Positions 1,788 to 56,950 of a stretch of DNA of 64,000 bases are shown here, piece after piece. Below the pieces are notes generated by a model. It searched no databases, was not told where the DNA came from, and worked only from the letters and a program-made list of their open reading frames with translations. The position numbers were made by a program, and so were the translations under genes. Every line of letters begins with the position of its first letter. Position 1 is the stretch's first letter. Source of the DNA: Spirochaetia bacterium (GTDB lineage: Bacteria > Spirochaetota > Spirochaetia > SZUA-6 > Bin103). The stretch spans positions 3,034,545-3,098,544 of the forward strand of contig OZ241863.1 of the NCBI GenBank assembly GCA_965203055.1, given 5' to 3'.

Positions 1788-1815
1788 GGCGATATTACTC
1801 TACTTCTTGCCGGGA

Positions 1816-2454
1816 TCAGGCGCCGGCGCTCTGTTCCGGGACGGCGTCCGCGTCCAGTTCGATGTCGAAGACCGTGCCGATCTGGTCGTCGGCCAGGGTG
1901 TCGGCGGCGGCGCCGGCGGGCAGCTCCAACTGCGCGGAGATCAACTCGGCGGGATCGACCCCGCGCAGGCGAAACAGCAGTTCCGGGCTGGCGTCCAGTC
2001 GATTGCCGATGCCGTAGAGCGCCGCGGCGACGTGCTTGCACATGCTCGCCCAGTCGGGGCAACTGCACTGCAGCGTAATCTCGCGCGGCTTGGGGAACAA
2101 GCCGCGGGCGGGATCGGTCACCACCGCCATCACTTCGTCGGACAATGAGCCGCGCAACAGCTCCAGGAGCGAGCCGATCTGGCCGGCGCAACGGGTCTTG
2201 ATCGCCTGCCAAGCGGCATCCGGCAGCGGCTTGACCCGGACCGTGACGGCGTAGGGGCGCGGCCGCGAGCCGCTGACCTTGGCCTTCACCCGGCCCGGCT
2301 CGATCTCCAGATTCAGGATCGAACCGCGGCGCGCGTAGGTGCGGCCGCGCGGCAGCCGGTTGGCGAAGTCGGAGAACGACTCCAGATGCGCGCACCAGCG
2401 CCGCCCCCAGAAGCTGCGCGCAATGAGATTGCCTTTGATCGTGATCGGCTCCAT
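1816..2454 (-). CDS. SWIM zinc-finger domain protein
   Basis: 212 aa with a CxC...CxH SWIM signature (LQCSCPDWASMCKH). It lies immediately downstream of the SNF2 helicase on the same strand with an 18 bp gap. Confidence 0.75.
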   Translation of the reverse strand: MEPITIKGNLIARSFWGRRWCAHLESFSDFANRLPRGRTYARRGSILNLEIEPGRVKAKVSGSRPRPYAVTVRVKPLPDAAWQAIKTRCAGQIGSLLELLRGSLSDEVMAVVTDPARGLFPKPREITLQCSCPDWASMCKHVAAALYGIGNRLDASPELLFRLRGVDPAELISAQLELPAGAAADTLADDQIGTVFDIELDADAVPEQSAGA

Positions 2455-2471
2455 CGTTTTCCCGCTCCTTC

Positions 2472-5189
2472 CTACTCCGCGGCGCGGGATACGTCCAGCC
2501 GCACCAGTTCCAGCAGCTCGTCGTCGGGCAGTTCGGTCAGGTTGATCTCCCCGCCGCCGGCCCCGGCGCCGGGCAGCAGGTCGGCCGCCAACTGCCGCTT
2601 GTCGCGGATCAGGCTATCGATCCGCTCCTCCACCGTGCCGCGGGTAATGAACTTGTGCACCAGGACGTTGCGCCGCTGGCCGATGCGGAAGGCGCGGTCG
2701 GTGGCCTGGTCTTCCACCGCCGGATTCCACCAGCGGTCGAAGTGGATCACGTGCGACGCCGCGGTCAGGTTCAGACCGGTGCCGCCGGCCTTCAGCGACA
2801 GCACCAGAAACGGCGGGCCGTCGTCGCGCTGGAACCGCTCCACCACGGCGCGGCGCTGCTTGACGCTCGTGCCGCCGTGCAGCGCCAGCCCGGCGGCGCG
2901 GAACAGAGTCGCCAGATAGTCGGCGAGCGGATCGATGATCTCCCGATATTGGGTGAAGATCAGCGCCTTCTCCTGGCGGTCCGCGAGTTCCTCGCAGATT
3001 TCCGCCAGGCGCTGGAACTTGCCGCTTGCCGCCGGGGCGTACTCGCCGTCGCCGGAGAGTTGGCTGGGGTGATTGCACACCTGCTTCAGGCGCAGCAGCG
3101 ACGCCAGCACCAGACCGCGCCGCGCCATGCGGTCGCCCGACTCGGCGGATTCCAGGGCGCGCTGCAGGGCCTGCACCACCTGCTGGTAGAGTCGGACCTG
3201 CGCCGGCGAGAGCTGGCAGTAGCGGGCGGTTTCGGTCTTCTCCGGCAGGTCGGCGATGATGCTGCGGTCGGTCTTGAGCCGGCGCAGGAGGTAGGGGCTC
3301 ACCAGCCGGCGCAACGGCGCGAACGGTTGCTGCGCCCGCGCCTGCAGGGTCTTGACGAAGGCGCGGAACACGCTTTGCGAGCCGAGCAGTCCGGGATTGA
3401 GGAAGTCGAACAGCGCCCACAGGTCGCCGAGCCGGTTTTCGACCGGCGTACCGGTCAGGGCCACGCGGGCGTCCGCGGGCAGCGCTCGGGCGGCGCGGCT
3501 CTGCCGGGTGGCCGGGTTTCTGATCGCCTGCGCCTCGTCCAGGATCACCAGCCGCCAGCGGATCTCCGCCAGCCAACTCTGGCGTACCAACATGGCGTAG
3601 GTGGTAACGACCAGGTCGGCGGCGGCCAGATGCTTCCGCGGCGCCGCGGCGATCTCCGCCAGGATCTGGCGGTCGTTCTCGGCCGGATGGAGGAAGCAGA
3701 GCCGCAGGGAGGGCGCGAACCGCTCCGCTTCGGCGCGCCAGTTGCCCAGCAGCGACGCCGGCACGACCAGCAGGGCGGGAGCGCGCCGCCGGGCTCCGTT
3801 CGCGGGCCGGTCGCACAGCAGCAGGGCCAGCACCTGGATCGTCTTGCCGAGCCCCATGTCGTCGGCCAGACAGGCGCCGAACCCCAGCCGGGTCAAAAAG
3901 TGCAACCAGGCCAGCCCGGCGCGTTGATAGGGCCGCAGCGTTCCCTGCAGGGCGGCGCCCAGTTCCGCTTCGCGCCGCTCCGAGCCGCCCGGCTGGCGCA
4001 GCCCGGCCAGCAGCTCGCGCATTGCGGCGCCGGCTTCGATCCGCACCCACGGCCGGTCGGCTTCGGTCTGTTCCTCCTGCTGCAGGTCGGCGGAGGCGCC
4101 GGCCAGCAGTCGCATCCCTTCGATGAAGGAGAGGCCGTCGCCGCCCGCCTGCTCCTGCAATGCTTCCCAGTGGGAGATCGCCTGTTGCAACCGTTCGCGG
4201 TCCACCTCCACCCACTGGTTGCGCAGCTGAACCAGGTTGCCCGCGCCGTCCCGCAACTCCTGCAGTTCAGCCGCCGACAGCGCGCGGTCGCCCAGGGCTA
4301 CCTCGACCTTGAAGTCTAGCATCGCCGCGGCGTCCACCCGCGCCGGGGTCTCCGTGCCGATCGTCACCGCCACCCGCGGCCGGGGCCGTTTGCGCCACCA
4401 GTTCGGCACCCGTACCGACAAGCCGCACCGCTCCAGATCGGGCACGCTCTGCAGGAAGCGGTAGGCCTGCTCGGGCGGCCACGTCAGCGCGCCATAGAGG
4501 TTGCCCGAGCCCGCCAGTTCCCGCACCCAGGAGCATGCCTTGGCAGCTTCCTCCACCGGCGACAGCAGCTTGAGCAGCGCGGCCCGGTCGTCCGCTCCGG
4601 CGTACTGTTGCAGGGCGTTGCGCAGCGGCGCGTGCTTCAACCGGCCGCCGGCGCCGAAGCCGGTGGAGTAGGTGGCCAGAAACGCGAACGGGCGCTCCTC
4701 ATCGGCGCGGTTCTCGGCCAGGTGAAAGCAGACCCGGCCCACCTGATGCCAGCGCGGCGCCCGCCGGCTCAGCAGCTCCTCCAGGCCGCCGGCCTCCGCC
4801 GCGGCGGCGCGGACCCACTGGCCGAGTTGCTCCCACAGCCGCTGCAGGAGCTCCGGCGACAGGTACTCTCCGCCCTCCATCGGCGGGGCGGTGAGCATCC
4901 AGGCCGCGCACTGGGCGGCGGTCGGCGGCGCCGCCAGGGGACATGCGGAATCCGGCCCCGCGGCCGCCGGCAGGTGGCACAAGGCGGTGAGATACTGCTC
5001 GGCGAATTGCTGCCAGTAGCGCAGCGCCGGGAACTCCTGCGCCGGCAGCCGTTCGGCCGCCAGGGTGAACAGCGCGCTGCGCCAGTCGCTCCGCATCGCC
5101 TCCGGGACGCCGCCCAGTTCGGCCGGCGCCGGCGCGTCCGCGGCCGGCTCCCAGCGCAACTGGCCGGCCGGCGTCAGCCGCACGCTCAT
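2472..5189 (-). CDS. SNF2-family DEAD/DEAH-box helicase with a long N-terminal SNF2-associated region
   Basis: 905 aa. Helicase motifs: LADDMGLGKT (motif I), DEAQAIRN (motif II), and the helicase-C motif FRIGQRRNVLVHKF. Partner of the SWIM protein. Confidence 0.85.
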   Translation of the reverse strand: MSVRLTPAGQLRWEPAADAPAPAELGGVPEAMRSDWRSALFTLAAERLPAQEFPALRYWQQFAEQYLTALCHLPAAAGPDSACPLAAPPTAAQCAAWMLTAPPMEGGEYLSPELLQRLWEQLGQWVRAAAAEAGGLEELLSRRAPRWHQVGRVCFHLAENRADEERPFAFLATYSTGFGAGGRLKHAPLRNALQQYAGADDRAALLKLLSPVEEAAKACSWVRELAGSGNLYGALTWPPEQAYRFLQSVPDLERCGLSVRVPNWWRKRPRPRVAVTIGTETPARVDAAAMLDFKVEVALGDRALSAAELQELRDGAGNLVQLRNQWVEVDRERLQQAISHWEALQEQAGGDGLSFIEGMRLLAGASADLQQEEQTEADRPWVRIEAGAAMRELLAGLRQPGGSERREAELGAALQGTLRPYQRAGLAWLHFLTRLGFGACLADDMGLGKTIQVLALLLCDRPANGARRRAPALLVVPASLLGNWRAEAERFAPSLRLCFLHPAENDRQILAEIAAAPRKHLAAADLVVTTYAMLVRQSWLAEIRWRLVILDEAQAIRNPATRQSRAARALPADARVALTGTPVENRLGDLWALFDFLNPGLLGSQSVFRAFVKTLQARAQQPFAPLRRLVSPYLLRRLKTDRSIIADLPEKTETARYCQLSPAQVRLYQQVVQALQRALESAESGDRMARRGLVLASLLRLKQVCNHPSQLSGDGEYAPAASGKFQRLAEICEELADRQEKALIFTQYREIIDPLADYLATLFRAAGLALHGGTSVKQRRAVVERFQRDDGPPFLVLSLKAGGTGLNLTAASHVIHFDRWWNPAVEDQATDRAFRIGQRRNVLVHKFITRGTVEERIDSLIRDKRQLAADLLPGAGAGGGEINLTELPDDELLELVRLDVSRAAE

Positions 5190-7067: not shown

Positions 7068-7196
7068 CACTGCTGTGTGCAAGAAATCCTCCGTCGGGAC
7101 CAGTAACGGCCAGCGCGGCCAGCGCCGGCAGCGGCAATTGCCGGCCGCGCACCTATCTTGAAGAAAATGCACCAGCCATGCAACTATGGAGAAACC

Positions 7197-8384
7197 ATGA
7201 GCCACGTCAAAGAGCTCAAGCAACACAGCCGACAGGAAGCGCAGGCAGGGATGTCGGACAACGGCGCATCGGCAGGTCCGCGACCGCGGCTGAAGAGCGT
7301 CAAGGTCAAGGGGTTCCGGTCCATCAAGGAGATGGATTTGGAGATGCGGCCGCTCAACGTCTGCATCGGCGCCAACGGCGCAGGAAAGAGCAACCTCATC
7401 GCGTTCTTCAAGCTGATAAACGAAATGATGGGCGGACGACTCCAACAATACTTCGGCACGACCGGACGGGCCACCGCCAATCTGTACTTCGGACCCCGCA
7501 TAACTCCGCAAATGGAGGTGGAGCTGGACTTCGAGGTCGATAGAGGAACCAACGCGTACCGCATGAGGCTCGTTCACGCGGCCGATGACTCGGTGATCTT
7601 CGCCGATGAGTCGGTCTCCTTTCACCAGGAAGGCCATGATCTGCCTCAGCTAATGTCGTTGGGCGCCGGGCATCAGGAGACGCGTATCAGAGAGGACTCG
7701 ATATACGATCCTCTCCCGAATACCCTGAGGCACCTATTGAGTCACTGCCGCGTGTACCACTTCCACGATACGTCGCAGACTGCGCGCGTTCGCCAGTACT
7801 GTTACGTTGAGGACAGTAAGTGGCTCATGCCCGATGCAGCGAATCTTGCCGCCGTTCTCCATCGGCTGAAGACCGAGAACGAGCTGGTCTACCGGCAAAT
7901 CGTGAGGAACGTGAAACAGGTAGCGCCGTTCTTCGTGGACTTCGATCTCCAGCCTTCCGGGCGCAACAAGACCGACATCATTCTCAACTGGAGACATAGA
8001 GATTCCGATCTGGTATTTGGGCCGCATCAGCTATCCGATGGCACCTTGCGCGCAATCTGCCTGATCGCGCTGCTACGGCAGCCACACGAGGACTTGCCGT
8101 ACCTGATCGTGGTTGACGAGCCGGAGCTCGGTTTGCACCCGCATGCGCTCGACATGATCGCTTCGTTTTTTCAAGCCGCGAGCGAGCACGCCCAAGTGCT
8201 CATCAGCACGCAGTCCAGCGCGTTCGTCGACGCCTTCGATCCCGAGGACATCGTGGTGGTCGAACGAGACTGCGAAGCCACGACATTCACGCGACCCGAC
8301 GCCGAGAAACTCGGCGCGTGGCTGGAAGACTACTCGCTCGGCGAAGTATGGGAAAAGAACGTCATAGGCGGCGGACCGCACTGA
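7197..8384 (+). CDS. AAA_21/ABC-type (OLD/AbiLi/AriA-like) ATPase
   Basis: Walker A GANGAGKSN, signature-like LSDGTLRAI, Walker B LIVVDEPELGLHP. GGAG sits 7 nt before the ATG at 7197; alternative starts are 7158 (TTG) and 7251. The stop overlaps the next gene's start (TGATG). Confidence 0.8.
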   Translation: MSHVKELKQHSRQEAQAGMSDNGASAGPRPRLKSVKVKGFRSIKEMDLEMRPLNVCIGANGAGKSNLIAFFKLINEMMGGRLQQYFGTTGRATANLYFGPRITPQMEVELDFEVDRGTNAYRMRLVHAADDSVIFADESVSFHQEGHDLPQLMSLGAGHQETRIREDSIYDPLPNTLRHLLSHCRVYHFHDTSQTARVRQYCYVEDSKWLMPDAANLAAVLHRLKTENELVYRQIVRNVKQVAPFFVDFDLQPSGRNKTDIILNWRHRDSDLVFGPHQLSDGTLRAICLIALLRQPHEDLPYLIVVDEPELGLHPHALDMIASFFQAASEHAQVLISTQSSAFVDAFDPEDIVVVERDCEATTFTRPDAEKLGAWLEDYSLGEVWEKNVIGGGPH

Positions 8385-9070
8385 TGCCCCGGCTCCACCT
8401 GTTCGCCGAGGGCCGTACGGAACAGGTCTTCGCTACCCAGGTGCTGCAACCGCACTTGGCGAATTTCGACGTGTGGCTGCATAATCCGATGTTGGTGGCT
8501 CACGCGCGTAAGAAGGGCCGCACCCATCGCGGGGGAGGCCGGCATTTCGAGCCAATGCAGAACGACATCATGCGGCGCCTCAAGGAGGACGCCAACGCCG
8601 ACGTGTACTTTACGACGATGGTCGATCTGTACGCATTGTATAACGACTTTCCTGGGCGCTCGGAGGCAGAGAAGGTGCGTGCCGATCCCTATAAACGTGT
8701 GGCGTCGCTCGAAGAATCATGGCGGAAGAAGACCGCGGACAATCGCTTCATCCCTTACATTCAGTTGCACGAGTTCGAAGCGTACCTGTTTGCCGACGTG
8801 TCGAAGTTCGCCGAGTGGCAATGCCCGATCCCTGCAATCACCGCGTTGCAGAACGTGGTTAACGAGGCGAAGTCTCCGGAGAGGATCGACGACGGGCAAC
8901 ACACCGCGCCATCCAAGCGGATTATCGCCCGGTTCGGTAAGTACAAGAAATTGAAGACCACCATAGGCCCGCAGATGGCAGAGATGATCGGCTTGTCGGC
9001 CATCAGGGCGAAGTGCCCTCACTTCCACGAATGGATCAGGCGGTTGGAGCGGCTCGGAACCGGCGTGTAA
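8384..9070 (+). CDS. DUF4276-family protein (possible TOPRIM-like effector), translationally coupled to the ATPase
   Basis: About 228 aa starting MPRLHLFAEGRTEQVF. Its length and conserved N-terminal Glu resemble DUF4276/RloB/AbiLii-type partners of AAA_21 ATPases. This family call is from memory, not a search. Confidence 0.6.
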   Translation: MPRLHLFAEGRTEQVFATQVLQPHLANFDVWLHNPMLVAHARKKGRTHRGGGRHFEPMQNDIMRRLKEDANADVYFTTMVDLYALYNDFPGRSEAEKVRADPYKRVASLEESWRKKTADNRFIPYIQLHEFEAYLFADVSKFAEWQCPIPAITALQNVVNEAKSPERIDDGQHTAPSKRIIARFGKYKKLKTTIGPQMAEMIGLSAIRAKCPHFHEWIRRLERLGTGV

Positions 9071-9073
9071 CGG

Positions 9074-11899
9074 TCATGAACGCGCCGCGGCGGCGAGGAG
9101 GTCGTGGACGTCTTCGGGGGTTCTCGACACGGCGCATGACCAGCGGCCGAAGCCGCCGTGGTCGGTTACGGCGGCGCACCACTCCTTGAGATACGTGCGT
9201 TTGGCGCGGTCGCCGTCGCGGTCCAGGCCCTTCACTTCCATGACCAGCATGTCTCCGGTCGTGAGCCGGATCAGGAAGTCGGGGCGGTACTTGCGGACCA
9301 CGCCGCGGTGCACGTAGAGCACCTCGAAGCCGAGATGATCGTTCTTCACCCAGGCGTCGACCGCCGGGTGGTGGTCGAGGGCATAGGCTTCCGATGCCTC
9401 CCAGGCGCTGTCGTACACGCACAGGTTGACGTGGCTGCGATCCGTGTGTTCGCACGGCTTGCCGGTGTACCAGGTGAGCATGTCGCCGGTCGAGCGGATC
9501 GGGTGATCGCGGTCGAAGATCGGCGCCAGCCGTTCCGCGTTCTGGAAGCGGATCGCCTGCAGGAGATGCTGCACGACCTTGGTCATGTTGAGCATCAGCA
9601 TGAGCCGCCGCTTCACCGCGTCGCAGGCGAACGCCGCCGGTTCGATCACCACCCGGTCCGACTGGAGCAACTGCTCAGTGAGGCGCACCAGTTGCGCGAC
9701 GAGCGCGGCCCGGTTTCCGCGCCAATCCGGCCGCATCTCGTCGTAGACCTGCTGCGCGGTCTCGAACACGATGCTTTGCAGACGGCGCTTCCGCGCCAGA
9801 CGTTGCAGGTCGATCGTCGCGATCCTGGTCAGGTCGGGCTTGCCCTCCACGACCGGCGCCAGCTCCGCGACCCCGGCGGTCTGCGCCGCGGAGAGCGCCA
9901 GCGGTTCCACGTCGTCCCAGTCCACGGTCAGATGCGGTCTGAGCACGCGGTCGACGCGCACCACGTTTGGCCACGAAAGCGCGAACCGCTCCTTCTCCCG
10001 GACCGGTTCGATGGCGGTCTTCGGCAGCGGCGGCGGCGGCACCCCGGCCCGCGACTCGTGCGGCAGGAACGTGAACGGCACGCCGAAGACGTTCACGTAC
10101 TCCGGCTCCAGCAGGCCGGTTTCGTCGCTGACGTCGTAGGCGGTGCGGCGCAGCCCGCGGCCGATCACCTGTTCGCACAGCAACTGGCTGGCGAAGGCGC
10201 GCAGGCCCATGATGTGGGTCACGGTCTTGGCGTCCCACCCCTCGGACAGCATGCCGACCGAGATCACGTTCTGTATCCGTTCGCCGGGACCGCCGGCGCG
10301 GCCCACCGTATCGACCTGCCGGCGCAGCAGTTCGGCCCGCTGCCGGGCGTTCAGCCGGCGCCTTTGGCCCGCTTGACCGCCTGCCTCGTCCTGCGCGCCG
10401 GGACCGCCGGCGTCCGCGCCATCTTCGCCGACGGCCGCCAACGGCTCCGCGGCGGCCTCGGCTTCGGCCAGCGTCTTCGAGTCGATATGCAGCGTGCGCT
10501 CGGGATCGCACAGCTCCGCGATGCGGATGCTGCCGCGCGCGAACGCGTGCCGGACGCGCGCCGCGGTCTCGGTGCGGTTGGCGACGGTGATCATCGCCGG
10601 CGGCGTCGGGAACCCCAGCGCCGCCCACTGCCGGGCGGTCTCGCGCCAGTCGTACCCCAGGAAGTAGTAGCCGTTCAGCACCAGGTCCGGCAGCGGGTCG
10701 GTAGGCGCGGCCCGGCGGTTCAGGTCGTCCCTTACCTCCGGGTCGTTGTAGATGTGGTAGAAGCGGGAGCGGTAGGTCCGCGCGTCGGGCGCCGCATCGT
10801 CGCGCACCACCACGCGCGGCGTCTTGACCAGACCCGCCTCGATGGCGTCGTTCAATCCGAAGTCGCTCACGATCCAGTCGAACAACGCCTCCTCGGAGCT
10901 GCTCCTGCCGGACGGCACGAACGGCGTGGCGGAGAAGTCGTAGCAGCGCAGGATGCCGCGCGCGCGGTGGATGCGGTCGAGGCCGCCGATCCACTTGGTG
11001 GCGGTTTCCAGGTCGGCCTTGGCGATGCCCCTGGTCGCGGACTGTTCGGAGATGCGCCAGGCGTGGTGCGCTTCGTCGTTGATGACCAGCAGGTCGCGGG
11101 CCGCGGCGAGGTCGCCGAGTACCGCGCGGACGTAGGCTTCGTCGCTCACGGCGCCGCGCTTGTCGACGCTGCGCCGCCGCGCGACCTGCGCCTCGGTCTC
11201 CCAGTTGAGCGCGTGCCAGTTGCGGACCACGACCCGGCCCAGGCGCAGCTTGTCGAGCAGCGCGGACGGGACGATGCGGAACTGCCGGTAGTAGTTGTCG
11301 GGGTGCGGCGGATCGAGGACCGCCAGCCGGCTCTTGACGGTGAGGCCGGGCGCGACCACCAGGACGTTGCGGGAGAACCGGCGGTCCTGCGGATAGGCGG
11401 CCTTGTTCAGCACCTGCCAGGCGATGACCATCGCCATGACCACGGTCTTGCCGGTGCCGGTCGCCATCTTGGCGCACAGCCGGGGGAATGCGCCGCCGTC
11501 GCCGGGAACGTCGATGCCCACCCGGTCGGCGGCCGGCGCCTCGCGCAGCCACATCAGGGTCTCCACCGCCTCGAGCTGGCAGAAGAAGAACCGGCGCGAA
11601 TCGAACTCCTCCGGGTCGGTCCAGTGCGCGAGCAGCCGCCGGGTCACGGTGGAGGCGCCGGGGTAGCCGGCGGTCCGCCATGCCTTGACGCGCGGGCGGA
11701 TGGCGTTGACCAGCGGAATCTCGACCGTGACGCCCGGATCGTCGAACGCCCGCGAGTCGGGCGAAGCGATGACGTATCCCGCCGGCCGGCGGCCCGGCGC
11801 CAGGTCGAACAGCCGCGTCGCCCGGTCGTACCGCCAGTGCCGCGCCGGCTCCTCATACGGCGAGTTGACCGTCAGCCGGTCGATGGTGGTTTGCGCCAC
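9074..11899 (-). CDS. res: type III restriction endonuclease Res subunit (SF2 helicase + C-terminal PD-(D/E)xK)
   Basis: 941 aa with ATGTGKT (Walker A) and INDEAHH (DEAH box). C-terminal nuclease-like motif DMLVMEVKG. Directly downstream of mod and the nucleotidyltransferase. Confidence 0.85.
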   Translation of the reverse strand: MAQTTIDRLTVNSPYEEPARHWRYDRATRLFDLAPGRRPAGYVIASPDSRAFDDPGVTVEIPLVNAIRPRVKAWRTAGYPGASTVTRRLLAHWTDPEEFDSRRFFFCQLEAVETLMWLREAPAADRVGIDVPGDGGAFPRLCAKMATGTGKTVVMAMVIAWQVLNKAAYPQDRRFSRNVLVVAPGLTVKSRLAVLDPPHPDNYYRQFRIVPSALLDKLRLGRVVVRNWHALNWETEAQVARRRSVDKRGAVSDEAYVRAVLGDLAAARDLLVINDEAHHAWRISEQSATRGIAKADLETATKWIGGLDRIHRARGILRCYDFSATPFVPSGRSSSEEALFDWIVSDFGLNDAIEAGLVKTPRVVVRDDAAPDARTYRSRFYHIYNDPEVRDDLNRRAAPTDPLPDLVLNGYYFLGYDWRETARQWAALGFPTPPAMITVANRTETAARVRHAFARGSIRIAELCDPERTLHIDSKTLAEAEAAAEPLAAVGEDGADAGGPGAQDEAGGQAGQRRRLNARQRAELLRRQVDTVGRAGGPGERIQNVISVGMLSEGWDAKTVTHIMGLRAFASQLLCEQVIGRGLRRTAYDVSDETGLLEPEYVNVFGVPFTFLPHESRAGVPPPPLPKTAIEPVREKERFALSWPNVVRVDRVLRPHLTVDWDDVEPLALSAAQTAGVAELAPVVEGKPDLTRIATIDLQRLARKRRLQSIVFETAQQVYDEMRPDWRGNRAALVAQLVRLTEQLLQSDRVVIEPAAFACDAVKRRLMLMLNMTKVVQHLLQAIRFQNAERLAPIFDRDHPIRSTGDMLTWYTGKPCEHTDRSHVNLCVYDSAWEASEAYALDHHPAVDAWVKNDHLGFEVLYVHRGVVRKYRPDFLIRLTTGDMLVMEVKGLDRDGDRAKRTYLKEWCAAVTDHGGFGRWSCAVSRTPEDVHDLLAAAARS

Positions 11900-11911
11900 T
11901 ACCCCGGTTCC

Positions 11912-12220
11912 CTACTCATAGATGGTCTCTGCCGACTCCAGTATCGCCCGGCGGCGCAGGTGATTGCGGCTGCGCTCGACGCCGCGGCGGCTGACGAGAT
12001 CGACGTCCCGTCCGAATAGCGAGCGGAGTTCTTCCTCCATTTGGTGCAGGTCGAACAGCGTGTGGCGTGCGCTTTCGTCCAGGCTGACCAGCACGTCGAC
12101 GTCGCTTTCGGGTCCGAAGTCTTCGCGGAGCACCGAGCCGAACAGCGCGAGCTCGACCACGTTCCAGCGCTTGCAGAACTCGGCGAGCGCGGCGCGGTCC
12201 AGCGGTATCGCCTCGATCAT
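11912..12220 (-). CDS. MNT/MntA-type minimal nucleotidyltransferase (Pol-beta fold), nested between mod and res
   Basis: 102 aa with the core NTase motif LFGSVLREDFGPESDVDVLV. It is 8 nt downstream of the mod stop and 10 nt upstream of the res ATG. No HepT/DUF86 partner was found nearby. Confidence 0.8.
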   Translation of the reverse strand: MIEAIPLDRAALAEFCKRWNVVELALFGSVLREDFGPESDVDVLVSLDESARHTLFDLHQMEEELRSLFGRDVDLVSRRGVERSRNHLRRRAILESAETIYE

Positions 12221-12230
12221 GTCGTCTCGG

Positions 12231-14810
12231 TCATGGCCGTGACGAACCGTTGAGCGGGATCACCTTCAGGCTTTCGATGCCGCGGTCGTCGACGATCTTG
12301 ACCGCGGCCCGCTCGTGGGCGCCCGGCGCGAACGGCAGGGAGACGGTGCCGTGGTAGGCGGCGATCAACCGCTCGTCGATCTCGGTGCGGAGGCTGCGGG
12401 CGAGGCGCTTCCAGCCGTCGCGGGGGGAACCGGCCATGGGGAAGAAGACCTGGCGCGGAAACAGGCTGCGGCCGTCGTAGTCCGGGTCCAGCATCCACAA
12501 GGCGATGCGGTCGCCGCCGCCCGATTCGAGGCCGCCGGTGCGGGTGTTGTAGTAGTCGAACCCGTGCACGGCGACGCGCAGCTTGCCGGCGTGCTCGCCC
12601 GCCTCGATCCGCTCGACTTCGACTTCCGGCTGGCCGATCAGCCAGAAGCTCTCGTTGCCGGCGCGCTTGCGCTTGAGGTCGTCGGTCAGCAGGTCGGCGT
12701 TCATCTGCGCCTTGAGCAGGGTGACGCTCGGCCAGTTGGTCTCGTCGATGTCCTTGGCGGCTTCCGGGTCGAACTGGAAGGCGGCGAATACCAGGACGGT
12801 CGGCCGCGGCACCAGCGTCAGCGATTCCTCCAGGGCGCGGGTTACCTGGCGCTGCTCCAGCGGCGCGTGGTCGGGGCCGAACGAGACCACCGCCCGTTGC
12901 GCGTGATAGGCGGTGCCGGTTTCGCGGACGCGGTCCGCCCCGGAGGAGTCCGGGCGCGTGTCGCCCTCGGCGTGCAGCCAGCGGGTGCCGGGCAGCGGCT
13001 CGACCCGCGCGAAGGAGATGCGCTGGCCGGCCTTGCCGCGGATGCCGGTCTTCAGCAGCTCGTCGCGCCAATCGCCCTGCCGCAGCGTCTCGCCGGAGCG
13101 CGCGATCGACTCGTCAGCCGGCTGCTGCGGCGCTTCCAGCTCGTCGAGCGGCTGAACGGTTGGCGCGGGGACCGCCTCGACGGTGAAGGGGCCGGTGACG
13201 CGCGCCTTGCGCCGGTCCGGTTCCGGCTGGTCGTAGAGGATGGTCTCGACGGGCGGCTCGTCGTAGCCCAGGATTCTTGGCGAAACGGTGGCGACGCTGC
13301 GGTAGCGGAGCCCTGAGCCGATCCCTTCGTCGGGATGGGCCAGCTCGTAGTAGTCGAAGTTCGCGGTCATCAGCCGCTGGCGGGCGATGGCGACGGCCAC
13401 GCGCGAGGTGTCGCAGGTGATCCACCGGCGGCCCCACTGCTCCGCGACGTACGCGGTGGTGCCGGAACCGCAGGTCGGGTCGAACACCAGATCGCCGGGA
13501 TCGGTCGTCATGAGGATGCAGCGCTGAATCGCCTTGGCGGCGGTCTGTACGACGTACCGCTTGTCGGTGGGGGACATCGGCGCGGCCCAGATGTTGTTGA
13601 TGCGGCGCCCGGGCACTTCGTCTTCGTACCGCTTCCACATGAGCGAAGATTGCCCTTCCAGCGCTTCCAGCCGTCCCAACTCGGCCAGTCGATCCATACC
13701 GGCCGCGGAAATCGCCCAGTGGCGATCTCGACCACAACGAAAGACTCGTCCGTTCCATTCGTACGGTTCGGAACGCCCGGTCGTGGAGACACCCTGCGAA
13801 TCGAGCGGCATGCGCCGGTAGATACGTGCCCTTTTCGGAAGATTCTCGTCCGGGTCGAAACACTCTTCGGGCGTCGGTTTACGACAATGGCCGTCCGGCA
13901 ACTCGACCATGACGTGCCAACTGAAGGATTCGATCACCTCGGCGCGCGTGAGCAGCTCGTACAACTGGCGGTACTTGGTATGCTTCCGGTCCTTGGCGTA
14001 CCACAACAGATAGTCGGCGACCTCCGACAACGTCGTCGTCGAACTGGCGCCGGTCGTGGCGTACGAAATCGTCGCCATCCGGTTTTCGGCGCCGAAGATC
14101 TCGTCCATGACGAGGCCGGCGCGGTGCACGTTCTCGGGACCGATCTGCACGAAGCAGCTTCCGCTCTCGTGCAGCAACTCGCGCGCCAGCAGCAGGCGGT
14201 CGCGGAGATAGGCGAGATAGGAGTGGATGCCGAGCTCCCAGGTATCGCGGAAGGCGCGGATCTGCTCCGGTTCGGACGTCAGGTCCGCGTCCCGGCCGTC
14301 GGTGACCTCGCGCCGGTTCACGAACGGCTGGAAGTTGGAGCCGTAGCGGATGCCGTAGGGCGGGTCGAGGTAGACCGTCTGCACCCGCCCGCCGAGCCCT
14401 TCCTTCTCCAACAGGCTGTTCATCACCAGCAGGCTGTCGCCGGCGATCAGGCGGTTGCTCCAGTTATGCCGGTGGCGGTAGAATTCGATCGCCTGTCGGA
14501 TCGGCGGGTTCTCCTCGGGCGCGTCGAACAGCGAGCGCTGCCCCTCCGCGCCGTTGCGCCGGCGCACCGCCTCGACCACGGTGCGCGGGTCGATGCGCTC
14601 GTGCACGTGCAGCGAGACCGTCGGCACCGTGAACGAGGTGTGCTCGGCCTTCCCCGCCCAGTCGAGCCGCGGCTCCAGGTGCGGATCGTAGGCGTAGGCC
14701 GCCGCCCCCGCGTCCCGGTCGGTCTCCGGCGTCACCAGCCCCACCGGCGGATTGTTCGCCCGCTCCTCGGTATGGGCGTAGCTCTCGATCTCCCGCTTGC
14801 TCTTCGCCAT
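12231..14810 (-). CDS. mod: type III RM Mod subunit (N6-adenine/N4-cytosine DNA methyltransferase)
   Basis: 859 aa with motif IV DPPYGIRY and FxGxG-like motif I DPTCGSGTT. The N-terminus MAKSKREIE... is homologous to the second Mod at 57289. Confidence 0.85.
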   Translation of the reverse strand: MAKSKREIESYAHTEERANNPPVGLVTPETDRDAGAAAYAYDPHLEPRLDWAGKAEHTSFTVPTVSLHVHERIDPRTVVEAVRRRNGAEGQRSLFDAPEENPPIRQAIEFYRHRHNWSNRLIAGDSLLVMNSLLEKEGLGGRVQTVYLDPPYGIRYGSNFQPFVNRREVTDGRDADLTSEPEQIRAFRDTWELGIHSYLAYLRDRLLLARELLHESGSCFVQIGPENVHRAGLVMDEIFGAENRMATISYATTGASSTTTLSEVADYLLWYAKDRKHTKYRQLYELLTRAEVIESFSWHVMVELPDGHCRKPTPEECFDPDENLPKRARIYRRMPLDSQGVSTTGRSEPYEWNGRVFRCGRDRHWAISAAGMDRLAELGRLEALEGQSSLMWKRYEDEVPGRRINNIWAAPMSPTDKRYVVQTAAKAIQRCILMTTDPGDLVFDPTCGSGTTAYVAEQWGRRWITCDTSRVAVAIARQRLMTANFDYYELAHPDEGIGSGLRYRSVATVSPRILGYDEPPVETILYDQPEPDRRKARVTGPFTVEAVPAPTVQPLDELEAPQQPADESIARSGETLRQGDWRDELLKTGIRGKAGQRISFARVEPLPGTRWLHAEGDTRPDSSGADRVRETGTAYHAQRAVVSFGPDHAPLEQRQVTRALEESLTLVPRPTVLVFAAFQFDPEAAKDIDETNWPSVTLLKAQMNADLLTDDLKRKRAGNESFWLIGQPEVEVERIEAGEHAGKLRVAVHGFDYYNTRTGGLESGGGDRIALWMLDPDYDGRSLFPRQVFFPMAGSPRDGWKRLARSLRTEIDERLIAAYHGTVSLPFAPGAHERAAVKIVDDRGIESLKVIPLNGSSRP

Positions 14811-14844: not shown

Positions 14845-15605
14845 ACCATCGGGTAGAGTCGCGCCGGCGTCCCGCTCAGCCATGCCGGCCGCTGGAGAAC
14901 TGCGGGGGTGACCAAGCTCCTCGGCGTGTCGTCAGGTCCCGTCGCCGCCTGCCGCGGCCGCGCCGTTGGGTTGGCTCTTGAGCTTCTGATACTCCTGCTC
15001 GCCAATTCCGGTCGCCCGCTCGATCAACGACCAGTCGACGCCGGTCCGCAGGAAACCGTCGATCGTCTCCAACCGCCCCTCGCGCTGGCCGTCGCGGTGC
15101 CGCTGTTCGGCAACCGCTCGCATCTCGTTACGCATCTGGTCGCGCATCTGGTCGCGCCCTTCCTGGCGCAGCCGCTCGCCGCTCGTCATCAACTCCCCTC
15201 CTGCCGCTGTGCGGCTCAGTATATCGCCCATCGCCTCGGGCGTGTCTTCAGGCCCCGTCTCCGCGATATAGTGCATGAACATCTTCATGTCGTCCTGACC
15301 GCCGCTTCCTTCCCGCTCCAAGTCGTCCAGCAGCGGCCGCATCCGCGCCCGTGCCTCCCGCACCGCGCGGCTGAAGGCGTGCATCATCGTCAGTTGCAGC
15401 AACCGCGCCCGGACGCTGCCGGCCGCCTGCGCCGGCGACATTTGAGTCTGGTCGAACAGCACGTGCTCGAACCGGGGCAGCCATGGCCAGTCCCGCGTTG
15501 CGGCCGGAAACAGGTCAGCGAACTGCGGGGAGTGCTGCCAGCCGGTGGGACCCTGGTAGAAGACCAGCGGCAGGATCGGGCGCAGGTAGCCGGAATAACG
15601 GGCCG
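14845..15605 (-). repeat. repeat copy A: remnant of an Rpn-family (YhgA-like, transposase_31/PDDEXK_7) element
   Basis: About 95% nucleotide identity to 23115-24190. It encodes only the C-terminal roughly 220 aa of an Rpn protein (YLRPILPLVFYQGPTGWQ...GRLETIDGFLRTGVDWSLIERATGIGEQEYQKL). The nuclease core is absent. Confidence 0.7.
14932..15600 (-). pseudogene. truncated Rpn-family recombination-promoting nuclease/putative transposase (C-terminal fragment)
   Basis: Translation matches the Rpn C-terminal region only. Upstream, in-frame sequence is non-homologous read-through that the ORF track merges into a 624 aa artefact. Confidence 0.65.
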
Positions 15606-53117: not shown

Positions 53118-53804
53118 GTGGAACGGCCGCACTATCACCAACACCGCCGGCGGCTGCGCGAACGCTTCCTCAAGAGCGGCGTGGCCGGGTTCGCCGAGCA
53201 TGAGGTCATCGAGCTGATCCTGACGCTGGCCATTCCCCGCCGCGACGTAAAGGAACCCGCCAAGGCGCTGCTCGCGCGCTTCGGCAACCTGCGCGGCGTC
53301 ATGGATGCGCCGCGTTCCGAATTGCAGGCCGTAGCGGGCGTGGGCGAAGTCGCCGCAACCGCGCTGCAAGTCATACGCGCGGTCGCCACGCTCTACCTGC
53401 AGCAGGCGTCCGAGGACGAAGCGGAAGCGCTGAGCGATCCCCGGCGGCTGAGCGACTTCTGGCGCATGCGGATCGGCGCCCTGAAGCACGAAGTGTTCGC
53501 CGTGGCATATCTGGATTCGGCGGGCCGGCTGCTCCGCGACGGCGTGGAGACCCTGCAGGAGGGCACCATCGACCGCGCCGCGGTGTATCCCCGCCGGGTG
53601 GCGGCGGCCGCGCTCCGGCGGGAGGCGGCGGCCATCGTGCTGGCGCACAATCATCCGAACGGCCTGCTGCAGCCGAGCGAGCACGACAAGCTGATCACGC
53701 GCGCGATCGTGCTGGCCGCCGAGACCGTCGGGCTGCGCGTCGTCGATCACCTGATCGTGGCCGCGCAGGACACCTTCAGCTTCCGGCAGGCCGGCCTGCT
53801 GTGA
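53118..53804 (+). CDS. radC: RadC-family JAB/MPN domain protein
   Basis: HhH N-terminal region and JAMM-like motif HNHPNGLLQPSEHD. GTG start. Confidence 0.75.
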   Translation: MERPHYHQHRRRLRERFLKSGVAGFAEHEVIELILTLAIPRRDVKEPAKALLARFGNLRGVMDAPRSELQAVAGVGEVAATALQVIRAVATLYLQQASEDEAEALSDPRRLSDFWRMRIGALKHEVFAVAYLDSAGRLLRDGVETLQEGTIDRAAVYPRRVAAAALRREAAAIVLAHNHPNGLLQPSEHDKLITRAIVLAAETVGLRVVDHLIVAAQDTFSFRQAGLL

Positions 53805-53887
53805 GCGCCGCCTGCCGTCCTGACGTTCGTTCGCTCGTCTCGACGGCGCCGGCCCGAAAAGGGTAGATTCCGGTCAGGAGAGTTGGA

Positions 53888-54628
53888 ATGCCGTTTACCG
53901 TCGAAGACTTCCAAGACTTGGTGCAACTGCTCGATGAGCGTCCGGAGTGGCGGTCGGAACTGCGTCGTCTGGTATTGAGCGACGAGTACCTGGCGCTGCC
54001 GGAGCAGCTTGCCGAGTTCCGGCGCGACATGGAACAGCGCTTTATCGAGGTCGAGAAGCAGATCGCCGACCTGCGGCGCGACATGGAGCAGCGTTTTTGC
54101 GAAGTCGAGAAGCAGATCGCTGAACTGCGGGGCGACACCGACGTCCACTTCCATCGTGTCAACGTGCAGATCGGGCAACTCAAGGGCGAGAACCTGGAGC
54201 GGCGCTACCGGGAACGCGCGCACGCCTACTTCGGCCGGCTGCTCCGCAAGGGCCGGGTGGTAGGGTCGCAAGAACTGTCCGATCTCCTGGAGGAAGCGGC
54301 CGACCGCGGCGTCCTGTCGCAGAGCGACCGGGAGGAGGTGGCGTGGGCCGATCTGATCATGCGCGGCCGGTGGCGCGCTGACGGCCGGCAGGTCATGGTG
54401 CTCGCGGAGGTCTCGTGGGTCGTCGACCGCAACGACGTGCGGCGGGCCGTGGACCGGGCGGCGCTGCTGAGCCGGCTGGGCACGCCGGTGGTGCCGGTGG
54501 TCGCCGGAGACTCCGTCACCGAGCGCGCGGCGGACATGGCGCGCAGCCGCAACGTGTGGCAAATGCTCGATGGCCGATTGGTTGAACCGGATGGCATGAG
54601 CCAGACTGAGTTGGCAGCGCGTCCGTAA
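53888..54628 (+). CDS. hypothetical coiled-coil protein (DUF3782-like?) with an internal 22 aa duplication
   Basis: EFRRDMEQRFIEVEKQIADLRR immediately repeated as DMEQRFCEVEKQIAELRG. The C-terminal region has a possible restriction-endonuclease-like motif (VLAEVSWVVDRND). Confidence 0.4.
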   Translation: MPFTVEDFQDLVQLLDERPEWRSELRRLVLSDEYLALPEQLAEFRRDMEQRFIEVEKQIADLRRDMEQRFCEVEKQIAELRGDTDVHFHRVNVQIGQLKGENLERRYRERAHAYFGRLLRKGRVVGSQELSDLLEEAADRGVLSQSDREEVAWADLIMRGRWRADGRQVMVLAEVSWVVDRNDVRRAVDRAALLSRLGTPVVPVVAGDSVTERAADMARSRNVWQMLDGRLVEPDGMSQTELAARP

Positions 54629-54637
54629 GCGGCCGCG

Positions 54638-56146
54638 ATGACACCCGCTGATCTGGAAGTCCTCATCCAGCAGGGCGAAGGCACGACGCTCGAATTCAAG
54701 GAAGCGGTGTCGTCGTCGTTCGCGCGGGAGCTCGTGGCGCTGGCCAACACCGTCGGCGGGAAGATTTTGCTAGGTGTACGGGACGATCATTCCATCGTCG
54801 GGATCCGGGACGCCAACGAGCTGCGCGCCCGACTCCAGGGCCTTGCCCGCAACTGCGATCCTCCGGTGAAGGTGCGCGTGGAGCCGGTCGGCAACGTGCT
54901 GGTGGTCCACGTACGGGAGAGCGACGCCAAACCGGTGCAGTGCAGCGACGGGTTCTTCAGTCGCCAAGGCGCGGTAACGCAGAAGCTGAACCGAAACGAG
55001 ATCCGCGACTTCTTCCGGGTCGAAGGGGCGATCCGGTTCGACTTGGCGGTTTGCCCCCGGTTCCGCTATCCGGAGGACTTCGACCGCGAGAAGTACGACC
55101 GGTGGGTAGGTTACTCCGGCATCACCGGACGGCCGCCGGTGGAGGACACTCTGGTCAACATCGAGGCGGCCGAGCGGGCTGGCGACCGGCTGCTGTTCCG
55201 CAACGCCGGCGTGCTGTTCTTCGCCCGGAACGTGCGGCACTTCTTCCCGGAGGCATATATCACCTGTCTGTTGGGCCGGGGGACCGACAAGGTTCACATT
55301 CTGGATCGCAAGGACTTCGCCGGGGGGACCGTGGCCGACATCGAGGAAGCCATGCGCTTCATCGAGCGCAATACCCGCACCGCCTACCGGATCGAGGGCC
55401 TGCGCCGGGAAAACGTCCCGGAGTACCCGATGAACGCGCTGCGCGAGGCGATCACCAACGCGGTCATGCATCGCGACTGGTTCTACAACGGCACCAACGT
55501 GTTCGTGGAGCTCTACGCCGACCGCATCGAGGTGATCAGTCCCGGCAGCCTGCCCCCCGGCCTGACCGTTGCCGAGCTGGGGCGCCGGAGCGTGCGGCGC
55601 AACCCGCTCATCTCCGACCTGCTCCACCGCATCGAGTTCATCGAGATGGCCGGCACCGGCATCCGGCGCATCCGGGAGGAAGCGCGGGCGCGCCGCTGCC
55701 CGGAGCCGACGTTCGAGGCCAACAGCTTCGTGACCGTCACCTTCCGGCCCAACCCCGAGGTGCGGGCGGCGACCGGCGATGATGGGACTACCGGGGAAGT
55801 CACCGGGGATGTTACCGGGGTAGTTACGCCGCAGGAGACGCATCAAACCCCTTCCCGGGCAACCACCGGGGAAGTCACCGGGGATGTTACCGGGGAAGTC
55901 ACCGGGGAAGTCGCGGCGGTTGTCCGGCTGCTGCGAGCGATGGCCGGCGACATGACCAGGCAGCATCTCCAGGAGGCGCTTGGCCTGAAGCACGAGGACC
56001 ACTTCCGCAGTGCGTACCTGCAGCCCGCTCTGCGCGCCGGCCTGGTAGAAATGACCATCCCCGACAAGCCGCGCAGCCGCAGCCAGCGCTACCGGCTGAC
56101 GCCCGCCGGCAGCCGCTACCTGAGACGAACGGAGGAGACCCCGTAG
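54638..56146 (+). CDS. AlbA_2 (Schlafen-like) + HATPase_c_4 (RecG C-terminal-like) putative DNA-binding / ATP-binding regulator
   Basis: The N-terminus TLEFKEAVSSSFARELVALANTVGGKILLGV is typical of AlbA_2. The C-terminal HATPase_c_4-like region is ...NALREAITNAVMHRDW. A linker carries TGEVTGDVTG heptad-like repeats. Confidence 0.7.
   Translation: MTPADLEVLIQQGEGTTLEFKEAVSSSFARELVALANTVGGKILLGVRDDHSIVGIRDANELRARLQGLARNCDPPVKVRVEPVGNVLVVHVRESDAKPVQCSDGFFSRQGAVTQKLNRNEIRDFFRVEGAIRFDLAVCPRFRYPEDFDREKYDRWVGYSGITGRPPVEDTLVNIEAAERAGDRLLFRNAGVLFFARNVRHFFPEAYITCLLGRGTDKVHILDRKDFAGGTVADIEEAMRFIERNTRTAYRIEGLRRENVPEYPMNALREAITNAVMHRDWFYNGTNVFVELYADRIEVISPGSLPPGLTVAELGRRSVRRNPLISDLLHRIEFIEMAGTGIRRIREEARARRCPEPTFEANSFVTVTFRPNPEVRAATGDDGTTGEVTGDVTGVVTPQETHQTPSRATTGEVTGDVTGEVTGEVAAVVRLLRAMAGDMTRQHLQEALGLKHEDHFRSAYLQPALRAGLVEMTIPDKPRSRSQRYRLTPAGSRYLRRTEETP
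55789..55911 (+). repeat. 12-nt tandem repeats (accggggaagtc / accggggatgtt) in two blocks inside the AlbA_2/HATPase gene
   Basis: Block 1 is three units at 55789-55824 and block 2 is four units at 55864-55911. They encode TGEV/TGDV repeats. Confidence 0.8.
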
Positions 56147-56166: not shown

Positions 56167-56950
56167 GCGTACTATAGGTGCCACGGCGTCGCGCAGGCTC
56201 TCAGCCCCTCGCGTGGGATCGACGTTGCCGGTCCGTATCCGCCAAGGCCAGTTCCTCGACGGCGGCCATAGCACGCTCAGGACCGCTGGCTCGACCAGGG
56301 CCTGCGCGGGCGCGCAGCGGTCGGCGACGGCTTGCGCGGCGGCAGCTTCTCGCCGGTGTACGCGTCCCACTCGTTGCCGTCAGCGTCGGCCATGATAAAG
56401 CGGTCCTCGCGGCGCACCCTGCCGCTCGCGAGCGACTCCCGGACCCCTTCCGGCGTCAGCTCCCCGAGCGGGCGCCCGGAGTAGTCGCTGTCTACGGCTT
56501 GGGTTTCGTCGGCTTCTTCTTTCTGCTTGCCCATCTGCGACTCATCAGGAGCTTGTCATTGGCTTGCGCGATCGGCACGAACTCGTCATACGGCCACTGC
56601 CTGACCCGCAACACCCTGTTCTTTGTGGGTGAGCATCTTGTCGAGCTGCGCCTTTAGGACCGATGACCCGCTCCGCCACGCAATATACTGCGCATACGCC
56701 CGCGCCCACAACTCGGCCTCGTGGGTCAGGTAGGTATCGCCCTGCAGGAGCGCATACCTCTTGCTCTGCAGGATCGCCTTATGACCGCCTGCATCGTCCG
56801 AGTCGACTCCCGCTTAGACTCGAGGTCGTCTATTTCGGCGACGCCCTTCTTTGACATGCCCGACGTCAGTACGCGCCGGCGCGAGTGCCCGCCGGCGCGC
56901 AGCCTGGATGCCTGTTTGACTGATGATACCATGGCGAATACCATATAGCC

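Follow-up and report, generated by a model that had tools for sequence, protein, structure and literature searches.

An orphan MntA-type nucleotidyltransferase between mod and res of a type III restriction operon is probably the remnant of a toxin–antitoxin cassette

Does a small nucleotidyltransferase (NTase) gene lodged between the mod and res genes of a type III restriction operon encode a component of the restriction enzyme, or does it have a different origin? The question is raised by a 64,000-nucleotide stretch of DNA from a Spirochaetia bacterium (hereafter the window), in which mod1 (12231-14810), a gene for a 102-aa NTase (NT1, 11912-12220) and res1 (9074-11899) lie in head-to-tail order, all on the minus strand. 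The ORF list and Pfam agree with the coordinates, strand and order given for this operon in a preliminary description, and the NTase motif quoted there, GSVLREDFGPESDVDVLV, is found in the sequence. That description proposed that the NTase acts on Res or Mod to tune restriction, and took the recurrence of the same architecture at 57.3-62.4 kb as an argument for function. Here, we propose that NT1 is most likely the MntA-type antitoxin of a type VII MntA-HepT cassette that has lost hepT by deletion and persists as a passenger in the operon. On this view, a type III restriction operon harbours the remains of a toxin–antitoxin (TA) module, and the restriction enzyme itself is an ordinary Mod/Res pair.

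The assignment of both restriction systems in the window as type III-like is borne out by Pfam and PADLOC. An N6/N4 beta-class methyltransferase domain (PF01555) is present in both Mod proteins, and res, encoding an SF2 helicase (ResIII, PF04851, in both Res proteins) with a C-terminal PD-(D/E)xK nuclease, lies downstream of mod. Mod1 (859 aa) matches Pfam N6_N4_Mtase (5e-28) and the PADLOC MTase_III model PDLC03632 (1e-148). Res1 (941 aa) is a restriction endonuclease/helicase of the BPTD_3080 family, scoring 1089 bits against NCBIfam NF046055 (cut-off 800) across model positions 2-968 of 970, with a TnsA-like nuclease match at residues 809-916 in a profile search; PADLOC REase_III models match the Res proteins, Res1 included, only weakly. 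The intergenic gaps of operon 1 measure 10 nt (12221-12230) and 12 nt (11900-11911), not the 8 and 10 nt first given. Promoter and terminator scans inside both operons found no site above background in shuffled controls, and since no such signal lies between the genes, co-transcription of mod, NTase and res is plausible from their close spacing. The window additionally carries a HEC-01 pair at 7158-9070 and, with its two restriction systems, constitutes a defence island.

NT1 is an MNT/MntA-type NTase, in agreement with its initial identification. It matches Pfam NTP_transf_2/Polbeta (PF01909, E 6.5e-17) and carries the catalytic GSX10DXD motif of MntA at residues 27-41 (GSVLREDFGPESDVD; motif scan). 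Its AF2 model (pLDDT 88.8) resembles the MNT chains of solved MntA-HepT complexes, with 1WOT, 6M6U_A, 7BXO_A and 8XEO_A as best Foldseek matches (probability 1.0 to MntA chains), and phmmer relates NT1 to 1WOT at 1.7e-9; the model thus predicts a minimal pol-beta-type NTase fold. Identity to solved MntA proteins is about 17-19%, and the score against the NCBIfam MntA_antitoxin model NF047752 is 40.1 bits, under the 60-bit equivalog cut-off. The HMMs of PADLOC PDC-S09, a class without a functional definition, match both NT1 (E 1.2e-22) and the NTase of the second system, NT2 (E 4.2e-12).

BPTD_3080-family res genes are widespread, with at least 585 hits among GTDB representatives. A survey of 80 res1 orthologues (family 1) yielded 74 mod-res pairs, of which 24 have abutting genes and 50 hold variable cargo, between 185 nt and 7.5 kb long, at the junction. 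By Pfam, this cargo includes HepT-like, HEPN, PIN, CAP12-PCTIR_TIR, AAA_15/21 and DUF4258/DUF2283 families. An NTase is found in 22 family 1 loci and is followed by a toxin gene in 18 of them (HepT-like in 15, HEPN in three); it stands alone in the remaining four, so that the order mod-NTase-res does occur in homologous restriction loci. All six close NT1 homologues that were looked up lie directly after a type III mod, with a HepT-like gene next in three. From these counts, mod-res without an NTase would be the majority or ancestral state. NTase and Res distance matrices are hardly correlated (Spearman 0.02, Mantel r 0.28), which rules out strict vertical co-evolution of the two and favours shuffling of cassettes between homologous junctions.

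One relative, L164, has the order mod-mntA-hepT-res, and its Res and NTase are 95% and 91% identical to those of the window. Its 112-aa HepT (Pfam HepT-like, 3.5e-28) has an intact RX4HXY motif, RNRMIHGY. Aligned to this locus, the window lacks hepT codons ~3-108 and retains the hepT start and the last four codons, a 6-codon remnant at 11899-11919 on the minus strand (mini-ORF ATG AGT AGG GAA CCG GGG TAG; MSREPG*), the start of which overlaps the 3′ end of NT1 and the TAG of which overlaps the GTG start of res1. Alignments including the HepT-bearing loci L164 and L002 place this scar in the window, L161 and L163; the identical junction is present in four independent assemblies (the window, L161, L162 and L163), with an analogous junction in L003. 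Since L003, an orphan, and the HepT-bearing L002 (Res 95% identical) together form a separate clade, hepT loss has recurred, and the same loss is seen separately in the sister clade and at least three further loci. Toxin-gene fragments are still present in L041 and L116, and the HepT of L016 has an H to D change within RX4H. By these alignments, the scar shows the solitary NTase to be a derived state: the hepT gene (PF01934, RX4HXY) found directly downstream of the NTase in orthologous loci including L164 is missing from the window.

The stated absence of HepT holds for the full 64 kb, as HMMs made from the HepT and HEPN genes next to NTase homologues and run against the six-frame translation recovered no HepT or HEPN (best E about 0.9). 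One weak HMM match (E 0.005, 11902-12216, minus strand) was rejected as an out-of-frame read of the NTase 3′ end; it was traced to over-extended N-termini of mis-called HepT ORFs in the HMM set, and improved HMMs gave none.

The second system lies on the plus strand and consists of mod2 (57289-59247, 652 aa; Pfam N6_N4_Mtase 1.3e-38, PADLOC MTase_III PDLC03633 9e-120), NT2 (59244-59583) and res2 (59593-62364, 923 aa; Pfam ResIII 2.8e-13), which directly follows NT2 without an intervening HEPN gene. Res2 is not a BPTD_3080 member (268 bits against NF046055, under 800), and its residues 777-876 give a sub-threshold match to RE_endonuc PF19778 (E 0.001, 19.3 bits versus the 23.4-bit cut-off). The recurrence described earlier is therefore real with regard to gene order, but the NTase is not intact. 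NT2 starts at 59244 in an ATGA overlap with the mod2 stop, and its homologues align in two frames by tblastn (N-half 59253-59414, C-half 59425-59577): the N-half, with GSX10DXD at residue 36 (GSKARGDAHADSDLD; motif scan), is in the frame of 59244, and the C-half in the frame ending at 59583. An intact 113-aa homologue, P0121, is 96% identical and indicates a 2-nt deletion after 59427. The repaired NT2 sequence has a Pfam match. NT2 scores 26.4 bits against NF047752, under the cut-off of 60, and falls in an MNT subfamily different from that of NT1, one partnered with HEPN. Among the family 2 orthologues, mod and res abut in 59 of 69 pairs, and the NTase is accompanied by HEPN in L104, L106 and L173 and orphaned in L116 and L171. 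Alignment with L173 and L104 shows HEPN to be cleanly absent from the NT2-res2 junction of the window. On these comparisons, NT2 is the remnant of an MNT-HEPN cassette and already a pseudogene; neither system thus holds an intact TA module, the toxin being deleted in both and the second antitoxin frameshifted as well. Taking the junction survey, the scar and the frameshifted NT2 together, the recurrence on which the argument for function was based would reflect a cargo hotspot with repeated toxin loss, and no conserved three-gene restriction architecture.

In view of these results, the NTase is very unlikely to have been taken on as a regulator or third subunit, adjusting restriction through nucleotidylation of Res or Mod. 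Mod and res do without an NTase in most pairs, an NTase usually comes with HepT or HEPN, the scar marks the solitary state as derived, and in the second system mod2 and res2 are intact beside an NTase pseudogene. Such a role would fit the tight gene spacing without internal terminators, the conservation of the orphan NTase, and the exclusive occurrence of the NT1 subfamily, among the homologues looked up, with the restriction family of operon 1. It could also draw on the single RX4HXY match in Res1, RSRFYHIY at residue 376 (motif scan). This candidate AMPylation site was, however, rejected, as it belongs to a family-wide helicase segment, K/R-S-R-L-Y-H-I-Y, mostly with K first, that is unrelated to NTase presence (a match in 7 of the 22 NTase-bearing loci and in 8 of the 58 others), and an HMM search of the Mod and Res frames found no HepT-like segment. 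It is highly improbable that NT1 is a stand-alone, single-gene defence NTase of the PDC-S09 type, working without HepT and apart from the restriction system: the HMM matches and the defence-island setting would suit this, but PDC-S09 is a candidate class whose HMMs would match any MntA, and in orthologous loci a HepT partner, the loss of which the scar records, is the norm. Mis-assembly of a hepT gene that is really there can be virtually discounted; many of the related records are metagenome assemblies, some of low coverage (L163 at 3x), yet four independent assemblies share the identical junction and L003 has an analogous one.

A more serious, though still doubtful, alternative is that the orphan NTase is a pure relic, functionless now, intact only because hepT was lost recently, and bound to decay as NT2 has done. 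NT2 is already frameshifted, the NTase copy of L163 has a disrupted C-terminus, orphan branches in a neighbour-joining (NJ) tree of NTases are not longer than HepT-paired ones, and Res differs by only about 5% between HepT-bearing and orphan operons, which suggests that the deletions are young. Against this stands the pattern of substitution in NT1. We discarded the window-L003 comparison (dN/dS 0.20) as a post-deletion measure because Res identities and the NTase tree indicate that L003 lost hepT independently, and replaced it with a comparison within the orphan clade, where no more than 11 substitutions in total comprise 6 nonsynonymous and 5 synonymous changes. About 15 nonsynonymous changes would be expected under neutrality, a deficit of about 2.5-fold (Poisson P about 0.007), and this comparison shows purifying selection on orphan NT1. 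All catalytic residues are retained in five orphan lineages, and orphan NT1 looks catalytically competent.

We therefore return to NT1 as the antitoxin left over from an MntA-HepT cassette, for which the following history can be envisaged. The mod-res junction of this restriction family would be a slot repeatedly occupied by small toxin or abortive-infection modules (mntA-hepT, MNT-HEPN, VapBC/PIN, a CAP12-type TIR protein and ATPase pairs), and the ancestor of the window operon would have had the order mod-mntA-hepT-res. A deletion of about 320 bp would then have removed hepT codons ~3-108 while sparing the hepT 3′ end, which abuts the res GTG start and probably contains the res ribosome-binding site, leaving mntA behind as a co-transcribed passenger. 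The NTase would then be an antitoxin that outlived its toxin, a remnant of an ordinary kind and no new subunit of the restriction enzyme. A remaining role of NT1 could be the AMPylation of HepT in trans, supplied by paralogues or by near-identical cassettes of sister strains; we do not think that it modifies Res or Mod.

Several observations sit uneasily with a remnant. Unlike a purely dead relic, the orphan NTase has an intact gene on which purifying selection acts; orphan NTases are fairly common (about five lineages in family 1 and three of the six NTase-bearing loci in family 2); and with 40 bits NT1 falls short of the 60 bits that the NCBIfam MntA model requires. Moreover, because all close NT1 homologues examined are attached to the restriction family of operon 1, NT1 may have some functional tie to the operon. 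Going further, type III systems of the BPTD_3080 family, and related ones, could reserve their mod-res junction for abortive-infection effectors that act as a second line of defence (HepT, HEPN, PIN, CAP12-TIR) and are expressed from the operon, with MntA selected after toxin loss for a new job, such as AMPylation of another restriction-linked substrate or protection from HepT cassettes that invade again ("anti-addiction"); we regard this combination as unlikely.

A new NTase subunit of type III enzymes would have mattered, and the data do not support one. What they suggest for annotation is caution, since a small NTase encoded in a defence island, also one that PDC-S09 models hit, can be an MntA antitoxin orphaned from its toxin instead of a stand-alone defence gene. 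The loci form a natural series from the intact cassette through toxin point-inactivation, partial deletion and clean deletion to an antitoxin pseudogene, documenting toxin-first decay of TA modules inside an operon with the downstream start signals preserved. In one widespread type III family, the mod-res junction emerges as a cargo hotspot for TIR, HEPN and PIN effectors; the link of restriction–modification (R-M) with HEPN toxins, known for type I systems, thereby extends to type III, and a coupled two-layer defence becomes a testable idea.

A literature search for a described type III mod-NTase-res architecture found nothing specific, and one for PDC-S09 returned mentions in survey lists only. 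PDC-S09 is a PADLOC candidate class defined by genomic association, and its HMM hits in the window are explained here as MntA antitoxins or orphans. The closest parallel is the type VII MntA-HepT system (Shewanella oneidensis SO_3165/SO_3166; PDB 5YEP/7AER, 6M6U, 7BXO), in which MntA neutralises HepT by poly-AMPylation via GSX10DXD (PMC7641770). NT1 shares with it this motif, the minimal NTase fold and PF01909, and orthologous loci pair the NTase with a PF01934 HepT (RX4HXY) in the order mntA-hepT with overlapping genes, whereas in the window the toxin gene is deleted, the cassette lies within a restriction operon instead of being free-standing, and NT1 is only distantly similar to solved MntA. 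NT2 corresponds to HEPN-MNT pairs (PF05168 and PF01909), such as that of Aphanizomenon flos-aquae (PDB 7AE9), in its subfamily, its GSX10DXD motif and the HEPN gene that comes next in L104, L106 and L173; it differs in its frameshift and in the lack of HEPN in the window. HEPN/MNT modules have been reported to cluster with R-M operons (Anantharaman et al. 2013, PMC3710099), and in PrrC-EcoprrI (PMC3710099), as in the ancestral state envisaged for the window, a HEPN-superfamily RNase toxin gene lies inside an R-M operon. PrrC, however, is part of a type Ic hsd operon and is restrained by the restriction enzyme itself, whereas the window has a type III host and a toxin, now gone, that had its own enzymatic antitoxin. 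Operon 1 resembles the canonical type III enzyme EcoP15I (Mod2Res1; PMC4490356) in having mod upstream of res, an N6_N4 Mod and an SF2-helicase Res with a C-terminal nuclease region, and differs from it in the BPTD_3080-family Res1 and the extra passenger gene at the junction.

Comparisons with homologous loci show that NT1, the gene for a 102-aa nucleotidyltransferase (NTase) between mod1 and res1, originated as the mntA of an mntA-hepT cassette embedded in the operon, from which hepT has been deleted. The three genes of system 1 lie on the minus strand: mod1 (12231-14810, 859 aa, Pfam N6_N4_Mtase), NT1 (11912-12220, Pfam NTP_transf_2/Polbeta) and res1 (9074-11899, 941 aa, Pfam ResIII). PADLOC identified Mod1 as a type III methyltransferase (1e-148) and matched NT1 to PDC-S09, a single-gene candidate class; Res1 belongs to the BPTD_3080 restriction endonuclease family (NCBIfam, 1089 bits; cut-off 800), and NT1 scored 40 bits against NCBIfam MntA_antitoxin, under the 60-bit cut-off. 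The spacers measure 10 and 12 nt, correcting the 8 and 10 nt of the preliminary description, and no promoter-like or terminator-like site between the genes of system 1 or system 2 (mod2-NT2-res2) rose above shuffled background. Both agree with co-transcription, which had been called almost certain; judged from spacing alone, we consider it plausible for each system. A PADLOC candidate pair, HEC-01A/B (6e-139 and 1e-74), is convergent with the res1 3′ end and comprises an AAA_21/AAA_15 ATPase (7158-8384, +) and a DUF4276 protein (8318-9070, +). The same pair follows res in L163, a 96-97% identical relative. Operon flanks differ between strains: L163 carries a Thoeris pair (ThsA_Macro and ThsB_TIR; 1800-3189) directly upstream of mod that is not in the window. 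Directly upstream of mod1 is a truncated YhgA/Rpn-like 'Transposase_31' fragment (14935-15600, −; profile positions 108-197 of 203), a full-length member of which was found near the L163 operon.

L164, from the same sample series as two further close relatives (L161 and L162), has the order mod-NT-HepT-res, with an NTase 91% identical to NT1 and a Res 95% identical to Res1. Its 112-aa HepT (Pfam HepT-like, 3.5e-28) has an intact RX4HXY motif, RNRMIHGY. DNA alignments of the window, L161 and L163 to L164 show two matching stretches, one on either side of the missing hepT interior: the first reaches the hepT start ATGAGT, overlapping the NTase 3′ end, and the second starts with the final four codons of hepT, GGAACCGG(A/G)GTAG, their stop overlapping the GTG start of res. 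Codons about 3-108 of hepT are missing from all three, and its remnant in the window is a six-codon mini-ORF (11899-11919) reading MSREPG and a stop. Since the ends of hepT are kept and its interior is gone, the solitary NTase is a derived state. The deletion left intact the bases just ahead of the res start codon, where the res ribosome-binding site probably lies. L161 has an intact NTase and an intact res, but its mod is split into two called ORFs (197-2779; 392 and 448 aa), which may mean either that the methylase is broken or that the assembly is at fault.

Scanning species-representative genomes with Res1 recovered orthologous loci at 62-86% identity in many phyla, 80 in all, and 74 of these have a Mod1 orthologue upstream of res. 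The two genes abut in 24 of these pairs (gap ≤22 nt), and in the other 50 the junction holds between 185 nt and 7.5 kb of cargo. Clustering of gap ORFs and Pfam scans of representatives assigned this cargo to NT1-type NTases (22 loci), CAP12/Pycsar-type TIR proteins (17), PF01934 HepT-like proteins (15), PIN/small-antitoxin pairs (12), AAA_15/21 ATPase pairs (6), PF05168 HEPN proteins (3) and DUF4258/DUF2283 pairs (3). The TIR proteins (17/74 operons) are 260-290 aa long and match PF10137 (5e-39), often in the order mod-TIR-mntA-hepT-res. The preliminary description had looked to homologous mod-res pairs for an intervening NTase; 22 of 74 do carry one, with a toxin following in 18 (HepT directly downstream in 15, HEPN in 3) and the NTase alone in four (L003, L021, L041 and L075). 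Six close NT1 homologues (70-97% identical) all directly follow a type III mod, and the next gene is HepT-like in three, the other three being orphans, that is, lacking a HepT/HEPN partner. Distances between NTases hardly track those between the Res proteins (Spearman 0.02, Mantel r 0.28), which rules out strict co-inheritance and argues that the cassette is exchanged among homologous junctions.

Res identities define two clades, one of the window, L161, L163 and L164 and the other of L002 and L003, each holding HepT-bearing and orphan members at ~95% Res identity, and a neighbour-joining tree of the NTases agrees with them. Because both states occur in each clade and the scar-flanking sequence of each orphan resembles its own HepT-bearing sister, hepT has been lost at least twice; these losses are recent and have near-identical end points. 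Elsewhere, L021 and L075 are further clean orphans, L041 retains ~150 nt of hepT, L018 has only a C-terminal HepT fragment and no NTase, and in L001 mntA adjoins an IS element and hepT is truncated. The L016 HepT (about 9650-9994) looks like a point-inactivated toxin, its RX4H catalytic His replaced by Asp (MRNRLVDVY) with the NTase partner still present. No intact HepT without an NTase occurs among the surveyed loci; decay at these junctions is toxin first, as expected of a toxin-antitoxin module.

Comparisons show the same origin by toxin loss, plus a frameshift, for system 2, where ORF and Pfam searches placed mod2 (57289-59247), NT2 (start 59244) and res2 (59593-62364) on the plus strand. 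NT2 homologues align in two different frames. P0121, an intact homologue of 113 aa with 96% identity, has ...AADVKREL... at the point where GAC-G-AAG stands in the window, which implies a 2-nt deletion after 59427. This is more likely a real mutation than a sequencing error, since no homopolymer lies there. Of the Res2-family loci, 69 have mod upstream, and in 59 of these mod and res abut. NTase-bearing relatives include L104, L106 and L173, with an NTase and a PF05168 HEPN before res, and L116 and L171, with an orphan NTase, L116 keeping ~90 nt of HEPN remnants. System 2 thus repeats the history of system 1 with a different MNT subfamily, one step further on, its antitoxin gene being already a predicted pseudogene. 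Just upstream of mod2 lies a MazE/AbrB-type antitoxin gene (56951-57220, +; PF04014, 1.4e-10) with a promoter-like site at 56916-56944. The interval from this gene to mod2 holds no toxin gene, and the gene may encode another orphaned antitoxin or else a controller-like regulator of system 2. Further upstream (53118-56146, +) are a RadC-like JAB protein, an unannotated 246-aa ORF and a Schlafen/AlbA_2-HATPase_c_4-Fic-like_C protein, content typical of mobile or defence islands.

NT1 has the exact GSX10DXD motif, the catalytic signature of MntA (PMC7641770), and its AF2 model (pLDDT 88.8) matches 1WOT and shares the fold of the MNT chains in the solved MntA-HepT and HEPN-MNT complexes 6M6U, 7BXO, 8XEO and 7AE9. 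Within the orphan clade, 6 nonsynonymous and 5 synonymous changes separate NT1 of the window from its L161 counterpart, against about 15 nonsynonymous changes expected at the neutral rate given by the dS of NT1 and flanking res, about 0.066 (Poisson P about 0.007). Though the sample is small, at 11 substitutions in all, this deficit indicates that the orphan is being conserved. Such constraint could reflect the short time since the hepT deletion, and in L163, an orphan on a 3x-coverage contig, the NTase C-terminus is disrupted. We favour NT1 as a co-transcribed passenger; the best explanation of its constraint would be that it acts on HepT toxins provided in trans, by paralogues elsewhere in the genome or by the 91-95% identical intact cassettes of sister strains.

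The preliminary description instead suggested that the NTase could nucleotidylate Res or Mod and so tune restriction, or act as a sensor or effector. Its observation that HepT is absent holds across the whole 64 kb, where we found no HepT or HEPN gene, and neither the Mod nor the Res frames contain a HepT-like segment. MntA neutralises HepT by moving up to three AMPs onto the Tyr of RX4HXY (PMC7641770). The single match in Res1 (RSRFYHIY, residue 376) is a coincidence, falling in a helicase segment conserved across the family (K/R-S-R-L-Y-H-I-Y, the first residue K in most orthologues); Res matches at 7 of 22 NTase-bearing loci versus 8 of the 58 others were judged no commoner with an NTase. 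The motif is not linked to the NTase, and many, or most, genomes have these restriction families working without one. We found no positive support for AMPylation of Res or Mod. The recurrence at 57.3-62.4 kb, previously read as a sign of function, does place an NTase between mod2 and res2, but there toxin loss is repeated and NT2 is frameshifted. That an orphan adenylyltransferase has been co-opted, or that type III operons have a dedicated effector slot, we regard as improbable.

In the literature we found no description of mntA-hepT embedded at the mod-res junction of the BPTD_3080 family, or of orphaned derivatives. None of the components (type III R-M, MntA and HepT/HEPN) is new, nor is the general association of R-M with HEPN: HEPN/MNT modules are known to lie in clusters with R-M operons, and a role there as second-line suicide effectors has been proposed for them (PMC3710099).
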